Below, piece by piece: positions 54,001 to 60,000 of a stretch of 64,000 nt of DNA; positions within the stretch are counted from its first letter, which is position 1, and every line of letters begins with the position of its first letter. Position numbers: made by a program. This stretch comes from a virus: IMG/VR virus record IMGVR_UViG_3300017765_000001, positions 1 to 64,000 of that record. One strand, 5' to 3'.

Positions 54001-57000
54001 CCCTGCTTGTGGATTGCTTTGTGATCTTGTTTGCTTCTACATTACCTACCCTTGCTCTCCATTCTCTGAAGATCTCTCTGTTGTAATGACTAATGATAGA
54101 TGTAATAGAAACAAGTTTATTTCCATCTGGAGTGTCATAGTATCTAACACCATCAATCATCTCCCTATCTAATTTAGGGTAATCAATCTCAATATGTTTG
54201 AACATTAGAGTCCTAATTCAAGTTTTGTTGTTATGTACTCTTTGACAAATCCACTTCTGCAGATATCTTCAGCTTGGAATTCAATGACATCAAAGGATGG
54301 CATGTTCTTCAAGATACGCATGAAATCAATGATGCCATTCTTCTCACTCATCTTAATAAGGTCAGTCTGTGTTGCATCACCACAGAACATGATCTTTGAA
54401 CCTTCACCTACTCTGGTGATGATAGAGTCCAATTCATGGAAATTCAAATTCTGAAACTCATCAACAATCAAAATTGAATTATCAAAGGTTGTACCTCTAA
54501 TATATGATGTGCTCCAGAAACTAATAGTTCCCTGTGCCTTAAGATTATTGTAAAGCATATCAAAAGATGAGTCATCAGGCATCTCAAACATATACTTTAC
54601 CATATTCTTATATGGAATTTGATAGATGTCTGATTTGTCCTCATGATCACCAGGCAGGAATCCAATCTCTCTGGTAGGCACCAAAGATCTCACAATATAG
54701 ATTTTCTCATACTGAGTGTTAACATTCAATACATCCTGAAGTGCATTATATAAGGTAATGAATGTCTTGCCTGTGCCTGCACACCCATAGGCAACCATAT
54801 TTTGGTTCTTCTTGTATGAATTAAAGAAAATCTCCTGGTTGTCAGTCAGTGGTTCAATTTTCTTGGCATAATCAAGATTAATTGGTTTCTTTCGCTTCAT
54901 TTGTCTATTACTCATTCCAAATGGGACTGGATTGGTGCTACCAATACCTGAAGACTTTCCTCTACTCTTGGGCATAAACTCTAATTAAACAGGATTAACA
55001 TTTGAACCTGGCATCTTGGATACCTTATGAAGAACATCATTCCAACCTGGATGTGACTTCTTCAGTTTATCATATGTCTCCCCTACTTCTCCCACGCCAG
55101 CACATCCAGCTGACCAATCTTTATCCCAATCAGGATTTTCATCTCTCCACTCACTATATTTAATCATAGTCATATGGAGAGTTTGTGTCTCTCCTGTCTT
55201 CATATTTTTCACTGGATATGTTGGCATATCAACCTCAATTGTATGTATATTTATTAAACCCAGTCAAGGGCACCCCCAATGATGGGAAATTGTTCAGTAA
55301 AGAGTCTCTTACACTCATTGGCAATGTCCATATGTTCTTTCTGAGTTCCATTGGCAGATCTCAGATCAATATAGTGAATCCATGAACGAACAGATCCAGT
55401 CATGTACATTCTAGTTGGAGTTGCTAATGGTAAGACCATACGAGCACACTCCTTTGCTACACCTCTTTCAAGCATCTGTTGATACAGTGCCATAGAAGAG
55501 TCAAACAGAGTCTGCATCTGGAGTTCCAGATTTTGTTTAACAAATGGGTCAAGATCATCAGTGGAATTCTGACGATTCTTAGTGTCCTGACGTCTCAATT
55601 CTGGAAGAGGAATCTTATCCATCAACAAAGATGAATCAGCATACCTTTGTGAAAATTCTTGATATGTGAAGCTCCTATGACGTAGCACTTGAGCCGCAAT
55701 TGCTCTTGATGTTTCTATCTCAAGAGTCATGTATGCCTGTTCAAAGATGCTCCAATGCTTGTGCTTGATGCAATACTTGATAAGACCCTCAAAGGAATCA
55801 TTGCCCTGGTTAGTGGGGTTACTGACCCTTGCACAGTAAGCAATGTGCTTCTCTGCATCGGGGGTGACTGATAGTAGTGTTACTTTCATTTAAAATTCTT
55901 CCTCACCTTTTTTAGTTCCTTTAGTTCCTCTTTAATTTGTTGATAAGCATCCTCTGTTTTGATTTTGTCTGCCATTTCCATGGCTGTGATTATTTCAACT
56001 CTTGTTCCAAAATGTTGTAGTGCCCTTTCAAAACAATCTAATTCTTCGTACATTTTAACCTCTATTGAAGTATGCATTGAAATATGCACTGATACCATTG
56101 GATGTTTTATTGCCTTGAGAAATCCAGGTATCAACACACTCATAAATGTCTTGAGTGCTGTAAGGTGCCTCCTCTATCCTTACACCTCCATATTTATTGA
56201 GTAGAATATTAAGGCATCCTGCCCTAAGTTTCATTCTGTCCTCTGTGTATCTCCAATCTTGGTTAGTCTGGATATCCATCATCATCATTAAAAATTTCAT
56301 CATAGTCAGAGATTGGGGCATAGTATGATGCTGGATCATCTAAGTTTTCTCTCTTGTCAAGGTATGCAGTAGTATCAGAGTAAACTTCAGACTCTAGTGC
56401 ATCTACAAGTAATTTAAGATTTCTGACAATTAGTTTGAGTTTATCCTTTTCCATAGGAGAATATTTACTTGTACTAATTATAGATAAAAAAAGAGGACCA
56501 GTCAAGGTCCTCTAAAAAACTTTCCAATCAGATATGCCATGTGATTTAAGAAAAATCCATTTAGCATATGATACACCACGATATGTCAAAAGTCTAAAAA
56601 CTTTTTCTGGATCATGGGTCTCTGGATTGTACTCTGGAAGATCATAACAAAATTTGATCTTCAGCATTTGTCATCCCTCAGATTTTTTTTAGAAGGAGTA
56701 TTTCACCATACCATAATGACATTGTCGCAAAACAAGCAAGAGTGGTGACTGCTGTGAGTTGTAGTGCTCCCATAATTACCTCATTTGGTATAGGTACGAC
56801 CACGATAGCAGAAGGTGCCATGAGGCTCCTGTCCTGCCTTACGAACTTCACACTTTACACCACGATATGCAGTGTGAGTGATTCGTGCGTCATGCAGAGC
56901 TGCTGCCTTGTTAATTTGCTTCTTAATGATTGTAAGTGTGTTCATTGATTTCTCCTGAAAGTAAGGGGTTTTTAATCCCGTTCCTTCAGTCGTTTGCGTC

Positions 57001-60000
57001 CCATCTACACTCAGAAGTATAGTCCTGAATGGTTTCAATTAATTCTAACTTCCACTCTGCTTTCAGATTCTCATGCTTTTGGATCCTAAGGACCATAGCA
57101 TCAGCATCTGAACATGTAATGGTTGATGAAAGAAAAAATTCAAACATGGGATGAACGCTCCGTTCCGCGACTTACTTGCGTCCTGAGACTGAATTTTACT
57201 TCTGACTCTTGGATGAACGATGGTCTTATTATAGACCTCATGACTTATATAGTCAAGTTTGTATGTAACTTGTGATACAATTTTACTATTTCTACAGAAT
57301 TATACCTTTGTCTCTAAAAAAGTGTAGCAAATCCTTCAAACCACCCACATGTCTTGACCCATCACTATCAATTGTAATCTGAGGATACTCTGCCTTCTCT
57401 CCAAACTCGGACTTGAATCCAATCTCTGAGAAGTCTTGGCCTACATGATAGACACTAATATCATGACCACTAAACTGGACACTTTTCAGCAGACTCTCTG
57501 CTCTCTCACACTCTTGATTGTCATTTGAGTAAATGATTGCTCTCATTAGTCTCTCTGTCTCCAATCGTCTGGTTTGTCCTGTTTAAACCAATCAAGAATT
57601 TCATCTGCCCCATCAAATCCATTCTTGTGATTAGATGGATCAGGATCTCCTAGTCCCATCTTATTCAAAAAGTCATCAGTGCTGCCCTCCTCAATTTCTG
57701 AAGTAGACTGACGTCTTGCTTTATTTAACCAATCTCTTGCAGTTGTGTGTGCCTTTGCTAATTTCTCTACCCAGATCATGTCTTCTAGGGGAACATTCTC
57801 TTTATTAGCAATGAGCCTACAAATAGACTCTAAACGAAGTCTGTATGCAGTAGAAAGCATCTTAATCTCTATGCAATTTTGCTTCTAAATCTGTTGTCCT
57901 TTGGAAATCAGCATATGCACCTTCAGATCTCTCATGAAGAATGTCCATGAGATCAGCATAAATTACATCTACCTCAACATAATCATTGAAGTATGAATCA
58001 ATTGCTTCTTTGAGATACCTTTTACGATTCCACTCAGGTGAATAAGGCTTATACATGATATGAGGAATACATGATTTAATCATATTACTATTTAACCACT
58101 TTGTCAACGTTCTATCTGACCAATTCTATGTTTTGTAGCCTCTAGTTTATTGATGATGATGTCACATCCCAATTCAGGTATTGCATTGCCACAGGTAAAA
58201 AAGTCTACAGCAGCTTCTCCTCTCTCAGGCCAGGTATGAATTGAGATATGACTTTCACTTAGAAGACCCAGAATGGTCACACCATGAGGCGAGAATGATT
58301 TAGATACTATTTCTAATAGATTAACTCTACTAGTAGAGCAAGCCTCTGTGACACACTGTCTAAGAAAATATTCATCATTTAGTAATCCAAATGGGCAACC
58401 ATACAGATTTACAAAGTAATGCTTACCCATCTACAGGATTATCCTCCAACTCTTTGATCATATTTGAAATAACCTTTTCAGATCCATCCAGAGTTTTCAG
58501 TTCAAAGAAATTAGATTTGCGATACTTATTCAGTTTCTTATATTTTTTGATGAGTTTGTCCAAATCATCTTTGGGCAAATCAAATTCAACATCAAATCCT
58601 TTTCCCATCTTACTTCTTCTTTTTCTCTTTGCTCTCAATACCCCAAAGTTTAGGATTACTTCTTCCCTCTGCTTGGTTCATGGTAACAAAATTCTTTTTG
58701 TAAGTATCATAATAGTGATCAAATATCTCACTTTGCTTACCTGCAAAAACTAAGTCATAATGAGATGCATCATCCACTCTATACTCTACAAGGAATGCAT
58801 TATTGGGTAGTGATTTATCCTGTGCATCAACAGGATCACAATCTTCTTTAATGATCTTCAACTTCTTCCTCCCCATTCAATATCAGGATATGCTTGTGAC
58901 ACAACATCCTTGGTGATTCTATACTTTGATCCTAGCACTTTATCCTTAATAAGGCAAATAATTTCTGCCTCACCAGGATGAAGTCCTTCTAGCATTTGGA
59001 TAAAGATAGACTCTCTACGGGTCTTAGAAAGTCCATCATTGCCACCTTTCACAAAGTGATAGAGATTCCTATACTCCTTCCTCAAAGAGGTATGGTCTGT
59101 CCCAATGGGTGCCTCATTCTTATTAAAGGGAACTTCCCCCTCAGGAAGCAAAGAGATCACTGTATCATCAAAGTTCCATATCAAGATTGAAACAAGAGCA
59201 TCATTTCTATGCTCCTTCAAAATCTCAATCTTCTTAGCATTAGATCGTTGCTTACTAGCAAACTCCAAAATCTCATGGATAAAAGGATTGGGGGGAAGTT
59301 TTTTAGTTACACTAAATTTCTTCTTCGTCGTCTGGGCCATTTTCAAACCTCACTGATAAAATTTCATCTGGGATAATCTGTCCATTCTCATCAAACATTT
59401 CAGGGTGGGTGGGAATGTATGTAGCTGTTCTTTGATATGCATACTCTCTAAGAAGATATCCAACTACACCTCCAACAACCAGAAACAATAATGAAATGAC
59501 TGTAGACAGTGTTAGGGTTACTGCTAACATTTTACCTCTCCCCTCTAGGACTGTGTTTTAAGACATCCAATGAGAAGTCTAGATTAATGTGAATCTCCCT
59601 TCTTAGTAAGGAGATCACCTTACCAAACCTCACTTGGAAAGTTTTTGGTCTGGGTTTCCTCCTTTTGTTTCTTAATAGTAATTCTACACCTCTGTTCATT
59701 TTGAGGGTATCATCACTTTTGACTTTATTTAGAGGACTTTCTTCTCCTCCCTGGTCTTTTGTCACTACTGTACCTCCATCCATCAAGAAGAATCCCATAT
59801 AGGTATTCTTTTATTTTTCTTGCCTGAGGTTTAGATATGAAACCATAAGCCTCTCTCAGTTGTTTGTGCTCATCATCAGCACCACCTTTGATATATTCTT
59901 CAAGTTGTAAAGTCAAATCACTCAGCTCTGCAGCAACAGAGCTTTCATTAAAGGCATCAATCTCATGCTTCTTGATTTTGTTATCTTTAAGAAAATCATA

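Follow-up and report, generated by a model that had tools for sequence, protein, structure and literature searches.

A nested leader RNA, apparently derived from glutamine riboswitches and enclosing a small gene, in a conserved cassette of T4-like cyanophages

Glutamine riboswitches and a related cyanophage cassette

Both types of glutamine riboswitch turn on translation of DUF4278 genes (PMC6212724, PMC6698751). In the Synechocystis gifB (IF17) leader, an NtcA-type box and a type-1 glutamine core (CGUUCA, P1a, AAGUA, P2 and GAAGGAACG) precede a DUF4278-type gene that lies directly downstream, and glutamine is proposed to open an inhibitory helix at the ribosome binding site (PMC6212724). Here we describe a viral cassette that shares these elements and, as we propose, this logic. 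It lies on the minus strand (57279-56486) of a window of 64,000 nucleotides (nt), positions 1 to 64,000 of IMG/VR record IMGVR_UViG_3300017765_000001, a 110-kb cyanophage record that is 56% complete. We found that its leader RNA, which appears to derive from a glutamine riboswitch, combines two cores that are nested, and that most of a conserved gene lies within the loop of one RNA arm. Compared with gifB, the RNA differs in that P2 opens into a permuted second core, one arm holds a gene and one junction strand reads CGCAAGUA; the promoter differs in the position of its box, whose centre lies at about -50.5, ahead of a full -35 hexamer; and the proteins, of 31-54 amino acids (aa), are without the C-terminal part of IF17 that binds glutamine synthetase.

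Other described systems resemble the cassette in part. The glutamine-II RNAs that accompany short DUF4278 genes in marine picocyanobacteria (Prochlorococcus yfr6) share with it the host group, the junction CGCA, YRG-type peptides and the translational ON switch proposed here (PMC2864571, PMC6212724, PMC6698751), but their defining pseudoknot, with GGAACG in a 3' hairpin loop, is contradicted by the strand covariation described below. Tandem glutamine doublets also place two sets of core sequences in a row ahead of one set of genes (PMC2864571; 157 doublets in PMC9481103); these doublets, which we compared by description only, are described as side-by-side aptamers, whereas the cassette cores are nested and share P2. 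Group I introns can carry a complete open reading frame (ORF) in the terminal loop of a functional RNA stem, so that translation and folding must be reconciled (PMC3984707). This likeness is an analogy only: the cassette has no ribozyme, splicing or homing endonuclease, and its RNA belongs to an mRNA leader and is a putative ligand sensor.

T4-like cyanophages are among the phages with glutamine riboswitches (PMC9964418, PMC9602691), and glutamine aptamers are known from marine viruses, including the pelagiphage-like Melnitz (PMC9004378). A riboswitch survey concluded that phages rarely use metabolite riboswitches, and listed only two glutamine aptamers in cyanophages (PMC5473149). The Melnitz aptamer and those of the survey are single and Rfam-detectable, whereas the cassette is missed by standard scans. 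A full-text literature search of incomplete coverage returned no account of a gene inside a riboswitch aptamer arm or of a nested glutamine riboswitch.

A sequence-only reading of the window had described a self-contained nitrogen-sensing cassette, in which an NtcA box and a tandem glutamine-type riboswitch precede four microproteins. The landmarks that it listed are all present on the minus strand (Table 1): the TGTA-N8-TACA palindrome about 50 nt upstream of the predicted start, the TTGACT-17-TATAAT promoter, two CGTTCA...GAACG units, ORFs of 53, 54, 31 and 51 aa, and a terminator. Likewise, YRG motifs occur in two of the ORFs, twice in ORF54 and once in ORF51. Our results partly support the overall claim: the cassette reads as nitrogen-linked, but not as a simple tandem followed by four effector genes.

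We gathered relatives of the cassette with the 54-aa protein (491 viral contigs matched, 80 kept) and with the junction motif in IMG/VR. The unit order CGTTCA...GGAACG, about 3 nt, CGTTCA...GGAACG recurs in nearly every relative locus not cut by a contig end; in the window, CGTTCA stands at 57219 and 57157 and GGAACG at 57166 and 56984. Among relatives, the distance from CGTTCA to GGAACG within a unit is bimodal, at 26-40 nt or 155-250 nt. The 148 distinct cassettes have a common layout and fall into architecture classes according to whether each unit is short (S), medium (M) or long (L): S-L (66), L-L (50), S-S (12), L-S (11) and M-L (9), the last of which includes the window. The case that this arrangement exceeds chance rests on the relatives and not on the window, since it is among the relatives that the layout is shared and the stems covary, and in most of them that the box keeps a fixed distance.

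The element is also widespread among deposited phages. A 38-nt junction core occurs in one copy each in 414 INPHARED records, all of them cyanophages (another search gave 418 records), where it falls under 'hypothetical protein' or in an unannotated stretch, and no record labels it as RNA. A scan of cellular genomes with the junction motif gave chance matches only: none of 120 matched stretches had the neighbouring AAGUA hallmark. We take the locus to be a conserved early-gene cassette of T4-like cyanophages.

Nested pairing of the core strands

The two units contain four P1 strands, numbered S1 to S4 from 5' to 3' along the transcript. As the decisive test of topology, we scanned IMG/VR for cassettes changed in one strand only, and then read the partner strand. 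We found that S2 GCAACG always occurs with S3 CGUUGA, in 61 of 61 distinct cassettes. Similarly, S4 GAAACG always occurs with S1 CGUUUA (9/9 distinct cassettes). Such compensation was first seen in locus L057, and the scan was repeated with a stricter parse. These changes keep S1:S4 and S2:S3 fully paired and would mismatch S1:S2 and S3:S4, demonstrating that the units are nested rather than tandem.

A further helix, P2, of 5 bp, joins the tail of unit 1 (AGUCG after AAGUA) to the tail of unit 2 (CGACU before GAAGG). Relatives carry compensated variants of this helix, including AGUCA:UGACU, GGACGG:CCGACC and longer forms, and it sits exactly where type-I aptamers have P2. In the 12 short-short cassettes, P2 pairing stands at 91.7%, and both partners have changed in two of the P2 pairs. 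When the whole nested structure was assessed on the same 12 cassettes, 98.1% of cells were paired, with six pairs changed on both sides; none of 500 shuffles reached this pairing, and slid registers gave 31-60%. In the P1a(1) stem of short cassettes, pairing is complete (100%), and both partners change in three of the four pairs.

Together, these results define an outer type-I-like core that consists of P1 (S1:S4), P1a(1), CGCAAGUA, P2 (AGUCG:CGACU) and GAAGGAACG. P2 opens into an inner three-way junction composed of the S2:S3 hairpin, the arm P1a(2) and CGCAAA. This inner core is a circularly permuted copy of the outer one, with the same order of strands around the junction, and shares P2 with it. 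We hold this structural description (the helices, the nested topology, the coding status and the conservation, all established by computation) with high confidence.

Two relatives depart from the two-unit layout. Locus L193 (6440-6900) contains three core units in a row (short, ORF-bearing and short), and the tails of the last two pair as AGUCA:UGACU. Locus L078 (1050-1510) is a deletion variant in which the middle (tail 1, S2 and S3) is gone and two embedded ORFs are fused, leaving a single S1...S4 unit around a 340-nt insert.

The outer core resembles type-I glutamine riboswitches in several respects. The type-I P1, CGUUC:GAACG, encloses the whole aptamer (S1 57219-57215 with S4 56983-56979), and a P1a hairpin follows directly after CGUUCA. 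Of the two conserved junction strands, GAAGGAACG is exact to type I, whereas the other reads CGCAAGUA in the window and CGGAAGUA, the type-I form, in some relatives. Where type-I RNAs have a short closed P2 hairpin between AAGUA and GAAGG, P2 here opens into the second junction, which spans 175 nt in the window. The pseudoknot of glutamine-II RNAs, in which the 5' CGUUC pairs with the looped GGAACG, is not supported, as S3 covaries with S2 and not with S4. We had also considered a tandem of two glutamine-II-like units whose loops contain ORFs; this description was dropped after the P2 covariation and the compensatory changes in S1:S4 and S2:S3 were found.

Covariance-model scores are consistent with the same relationship. 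In permissive mode, window positions 57157-57221 match RF01739 (glnA RNA, type I) at 18 bits (E 0.73; gathering score 35), and RF01704 (Downstream-peptide, glutamine-II) matches at 14 bits (gathering score 33); together the two matches span 57154-57222. All core blocks are aligned in the RF01739 match, whose score is depressed by a 27-nt insert in the P1a loop. Loop-free or short-loop relatives score 24-46 bits against the two glutamine models. The highest of these, locus L037 (46.4 bits; other loop-free relatives score 24-34.5), is the only relative above the gathering score, and is so only with a model spanning S1 to S4 in which the intervening sequence is taken as a P2 insert. Long loops thus account for the failure of standard scans to find the element. 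From these matches, the leader RNA appears to be glutamine-riboswitch-derived. The similarity to both models that had been predicted from the window is therefore present, below their gathering scores, and of the tandem glutamine-type riboswitch it is the relation to glutamine that stands and the independent tandem arrangement that falls.

A gene within an RNA arm and the genes downstream

The arm P1a(2) of the inner core holds most of ORF53 in its loop. Pairing at stem pairs 1-5 is 92-100% across 124 distinct ORF-bearing arms, through pairs of the C-G, U-A and A-U types; slid registers in the same arms are 0-86% paired. These compensated pair types indicate that the stem closing round ORF53 is under selection at the RNA level. 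The gene and the stem overlap: the start of ORF53, at UCCCAUG, falls in the 5' strand of P1a(2); the 3' strand of P1a(2), J2 and the 3' strand of P2 encode its last codons (W-D-A-N-D-stop); and its stop UGA lies inside CGACUGAAGG. The triloop GAG of the inner hairpin forms, with the last G of S2, a GGAG Shine-Dalgarno sequence 10 nt before the ORF53 AUG. Within the class with an AGUCGC tail, this GAG linker is found in 91 of 96 ORF-bearing inner arms versus 5 of 16 ORF-free ones, counts that are not phylogenetically independent.

ORF53 behaves as a coding sequence. Its frame is open in 76 of 76 distinct homologues, in which length differences are whole codons, and Cys12 and Cys47 are invariant. 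Within the family, 46% of single-base codon changes are synonymous, and variability is greatest at codon position 3, followed by positions 1 and 2. These patterns indicate that ORF53 is a real gene under purifying selection. An AlphaFold model of the protein is a two-helix hairpin (pLDDT 82), and in a Foldseek search of the PDB with this model no match was stronger than E 3.

In other phages, it is the P1a(1) loop that holds a gene, of about 66 codons (phrog_6471; for example L082:1297-1497, from Syn19, among many loci), in which 76% of changes are synonymous. The phrog_6471 product has two conserved cysteines and a hydrophobic N-terminus, a layout like that of ORF53 (hydrophobic start, Cys-x35-36-Cys). 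With no Shine-Dalgarno sequence and only about 12 nt between the predicted transcription start and its AUG, the gene is nearly leaderless.

The first gene downstream of the RNA, ORF54, appears to encode a divergent DUF4278-like protein. Against Pfam DUF4278 (PF14105) it scores 15.8 bits (E 0.018), below the gathering score of 25.3; its positional counterparts in other phages score 26-31 bits, and the ORF54 family aligns to these over residues 24-54 (hhalign probability 89.5%, E 2e-6). Two YRG motifs, about 20-30 residues apart, are characteristic of DUF4278, and those of ORF54 (Y27-R-G and Y47-R-G) are invariant in 46 homologues. In a structure model of modest confidence, an N-terminal helix accompanies two short beta hairpins, on which the YRG motifs lie. 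The expected DUF4278-type gene is thus found after the RNA, by profile alignment and motif and not by Pfam score.

Two further small genes follow. ORF31, which encodes a hydrophobic protein, has homologues of 30-31 aa that carry a YGE motif and start 1-7 nt after the homologues of ORF54; 57% of single-base codon changes in the family are synonymous, indicating purifying selection, and there was no match to a PHROG family. ORF51 recurs at the same position in many relatives; it carries the second YRG motif only, and its score against DUF4278 (12.6 bits, E 0.18) is below the gathering score. Sequences comparable to the terminator, with a hairpin and a T run, follow the last gene in relatives. 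The terminator loop contains TTGACT, the -35 hexamer of the next TTGACT-17-TATAAT promoter (56505-56477), so that terminator and promoter overlap (56477-56513, minus strand); this promoter drives the next gene, which encodes a 63-aa acidic protein.

Judged by their sequences, all four ORFs are conserved among relatives. None would appear in a default ORF listing with a cut-off of 60 aa. The picture of four microproteins after a riboswitch needs amendment in one respect, as ORF53 lies inside the second unit and within the RNA fold, not downstream of it. The suggested link to inactivation of glutamine synthetase is weak: DUF4278 corresponds to the N-terminal part of IF17, and short DUF4278 proteins are without the C-terminal part, where the residues shown to bind glutamine synthetase lie (PMC6212724).

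Elsewhere, the window carries a thyX-like gene and other T4-like cyanophage genes, and a PhotoRC-II RNA (63841-63937, minus strand; 78.1 bits versus a gathering score of 39), a leader motif known from cyanophages that fits a T4-like cyanophage.

Table 1. Features of the cassette, in the order of transcription (coordinates refer to the 64-kb window)
Feature	Position	Strand	Basis
NtcA-type palindrome TGTA-N8-TACA, TGTATCACAAGTTACA	57264..57279	-	centre about -50.5 from predicted start; sole match in the window
Sigma-70-type promoter TTGACT-17-TATAAT	57228..57256	-	consensus scan, 11/12 consensus positions
S1 CGUUCA, 5' strand of outer P1	57214..57219	-	pairs with S4; CGUUUA:GAAACG covariation 9/9
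P1a(1), extended hairpin of outer core, no ORF in the window	57181..57213	-	Rfam alignment (27-nt insert); stem covaries in relatives
Junction strand J1 CGCAAGUA	57173..57180	-	aligned to conserved RF01739 junction; invariant in short cassettes
P2 5' strand AGUCG	57168..57172	-	pairs with CGACU 56992-56988; covaries
Inner hairpin: S2 GGAACG, triloop GAG, S3 CGUUCA	57152..57166	-	S2/S3 covariation 61/61
P1a(2) stem UCCCAU (57151-57146) : AUGGGA (57004-56999), loop holding most of ORF53	56999..57151	-	covariation
ORF53, 53 aa, phrog_504	56986..57147	-	conserved frame; phrog_504 E 1.4e-22
J2 CGCAAA and P2 3' strand CGACU	56988..56998	-	P2 covariation and short-cassette alignment
GAAGGAACG: junction strand and S4, 3' strand of outer P1	56979..56987	-	matches type-I consensus; S1/S4 covary
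H3: CUGAAGG (56989-56983) : CUUUCAG (56961-56955)	56955..56989	-	pair variation; minimum-energy folds
ORF54, 54 aa, phrog_545, with Shine-Dalgarno AGGAG (56956-56952)	56945-56781	-	phrog_545 E 4e-29
ORF31, hydrophobic, 31 aa	56678..56773	-	starts 7 nt past ORF54 stop
ORF51, 51 aa, phrog_6192, one YRG	56512..56667	-	phrog_6192 E 1.7e-26
Intrinsic terminator, 8-bp G+C-rich stem and T run, overlapping ORF51 stop	56486..56513	-	terminator scan

Proposed control and competing explanations

The cassette begins with a box and a promoter whose positions are kept among relatives. In the window, the single TGTA-N8-TACA match is not significant by itself, since shuffles average 1.76 matches. The shorter GTA-N8-TAC, here at 57278-57265, is the motif used for marine NtcA sites in cyanophages, whose genomes contain such sites (PMC3037559). 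Among 141 distinct upstream regions, 75 carry an exact GTA-N8-TAC that starts 58-61 nt before CGTTCA and a further 13 carry one that starts 52-54 nt before it, such that the position is kept in 88 (62%). The arms of the box are kept while its spacers vary and the sequence further upstream is unalignable, a pattern that reads as the signature of a protein binding site. TTGAC-type and TATAAT-type hexamers stand at the same distance in nearly all relatives. The predicted transcription start, A57221, lies 7 nt past the -10 box and opens ATCGTTCA, the first bases of the Rfam glutamine consensus; transcription probably starts there. The predicted NtcA site is thus borne out as a conserved box, though not in the geometry of canonical activation.

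GTA-N8-TAC is also enriched across the whole window, with 20 occurrences versus 9.9 expected (0/100 shuffles reach 20). Two of these boxes (31089-31102 and 31146-31159) lie 40-110 nt upstream of a tRNA gene with a long variable arm (30964-31047, minus strand; 54.7 bits).

At the 3' end of the aptamer, the helix H3 offers a candidate expression platform. Its variable pair is G-C in 68 relatives, A-U in 35, G-U in 29 and A-C in none, and H3 forms in the minimum-energy structures of both the window leader and two short relatives. One side of H3 shares bases with P2 and the GAAG junction strand and the other runs into the AGGAG of ORF54; because of the nucleotides in common with P2 and the junction strand, H3 excludes the aptamer fold. 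We also considered H3 as the P2 of a type-II aptamer formed by the second unit (S3:S4), and rejected this because S3 pairs with S2.

Other pairings occur near the start of ORF54. The S1 sequence GUUCAU (57214-57220) is complementary to AUGAAC (56940-56945), the start and Asn codons of ORF54, and the two pair in the minimum-energy folds of the window and L037; such pairing might provide an additional means of masking the start codon. Neither side varies, and all ORF54 homologues start MNT, so covariation is uninformative, and we do not rely on this pairing. About half of the relatives have an extra conserved hairpin of about 30 nt (of the CGGAUCACCC-GCAA-GGGUUAAAGG type) between GGAACG and the 3' strand of H3 (for example L037:1440-1490); the window has only a short GGG...CCC hairpin between S4 and this strand.

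We propose that the cassette is a nested type-I glutamine riboswitch that acts as a glutamine-driven ON switch. Host RNA polymerase would start at the near-consensus sigma-70 promoter, just downstream of the NtcA-type box. Without glutamine, the 3' part of the aptamer would pair with the sequence before the Shine-Dalgarno sequence of ORF54, forming H3 and keeping ORF54 translation low. Glutamine would stabilise outer P1, P2 and the junction, such that H3 opens and ORF54 is translated; ORF31 would then follow by translational coupling, and ORF51 would be carried on the same transcript. We infer ligand binding, the direction of switching, NtcA binding and the functions of the proteins from this arrangement, in which the phage may sense both host 2-oxoglutarate and host glutamine. 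We consider this full mechanism somewhat more probable than its failure.

Several observations weigh against the proposed switch. At Rfam gathering thresholds there was no match at the site in the window, nor in 20 related loci. The CGCAAGUA strand has a C where the type-I strand, CGGAAGUA, has a G. All four P1 strands are canonical in the window, so that its topology is taken from the relatives. Nearest-neighbour energies favour the H3 fold over the aptamer fold by 8-12 kcal/mol, and switching would therefore need tertiary and ligand energy, which lie outside the energy computation. H3 covers just the first two bases of the ORF54 Shine-Dalgarno sequence. In addition, H3 would be opened by any ribosome that completes ORF53, so in ORF-bearing forms, that of the window among them, ORF54 may be only weakly controlled by glutamine. 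Finally, in a canonical NtcA-activated promoter the box is centred near -41.5 and replaces the -35 hexamer; here the centre is at about -50.5 and a full TTGACT is present (the box is 6 bp closer in a minority of relatives). With this non-canonical geometry, any effect of NtcA could be activation or repression.

The position of ORF53 suggests an extension of the switch. Its GGAG lies in the inner triloop, its AUG in the P1a(2) stem and its stop inside P2 and H3, so that translation of ORF53 and folding of the RNA would compete. Control might thus be reciprocal: in the glutamine-locked fold, ORF53 would be off, owing to the placement of its GGAG and AUG, with ORF54 and the later genes on, whereas at low glutamine ribosomes would invade the aptamer and ORF53 would be made. 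The inner core could then be a second glutamine site. We put this forward tentatively, and think it more apt to be wrong than right.

Alternatively, the RNA may be a riboswitch-derived scaffold that has moved past glutamine sensing and now serves as a structured leader for mRNA stability, for processing, or for timing or coupling the translation of ORF53 and ORF54. The sub-threshold Rfam scores of the window and its junction C would fit such a role, as would the presence of the inner hairpin and both P1a arms in every predicted conformer; moreover, large genes in the arms would slow folding, and termination of ORF53 alone could open H3. We nevertheless regard this explanation as unlikely. The unpaired core (CGUUCA, ACGCAA and GAAGGAACG) is nearly invariant across diverged phages in which flanks, loops and stems vary, the C at the junction is the glutamine-II consensus, and the gene after the RNA is of the DUF4278 kind, a known target of glutamine riboswitches (PMC6212724).

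The conserved blocks might instead serve mainly as DNA-level boundaries at which small gene cassettes are swapped between phages, the resemblance to RNA being secondary. Indeed, ORFs come and go precisely at both loops, giving the five architecture classes, short inverted repeats flank each ORF, and the fused and tripled variants L078 and L193 exist. But compensated stem changes point to selection on RNA pairing and not on DNA identity, ORF-free forms carry UUCG- and GAAA-type tetraloops, and recombination, which could move ORFs, leaves the conservation of the unpaired core unexplained; we therefore consider this account very improbable. Least credible of all is a plain tandem of two independent glutamine aptamers side by side (S1:S2 and S3:S4), with a steeper dose response, which suits the linear order of the units, the alignment of single units by Rfam at 24-35 bits, the 157 glutamine doublets counted as tandem (PMC9481103) and the near-equal nearest-neighbour energies of the tandem and nested folds, but which would place C-C and G-G mismatches in the 61 GCAACG/CGUUGA cassettes and likewise in the 9 CGUUUA/GAAACG cassettes, has no place for a covarying P2 between the two tails, and is at odds with the need for a model spanning S1 to S4 in the sole relative above the gathering score.

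The nested cassette bears on how glutamine riboswitches are counted and described. The survey figure of two glutamine aptamers in cyanophages stands against a junction core in 414 deposited cyanophage genomes; the cassette is missed in surveys because its cores are nested and its loops hold genes. Glutamine doublets classed as tandem deserve re-examination. A nested, permuted double core and a gene in an aptamer arm would be riboswitch designs of a new kind, with the same nucleotides contested by folding and translation; and if the inner core is a second glutamine site, the element would be a two-ligand double aptamer that shares P2, an architecture not described for any riboswitch. The four families of very small conserved phage proteins (31-54 aa) are candidates for manipulating host nitrogen metabolism, and, should the RNA bind glutamine, abundant ocean viruses would read the nitrogen status of their hosts directly.

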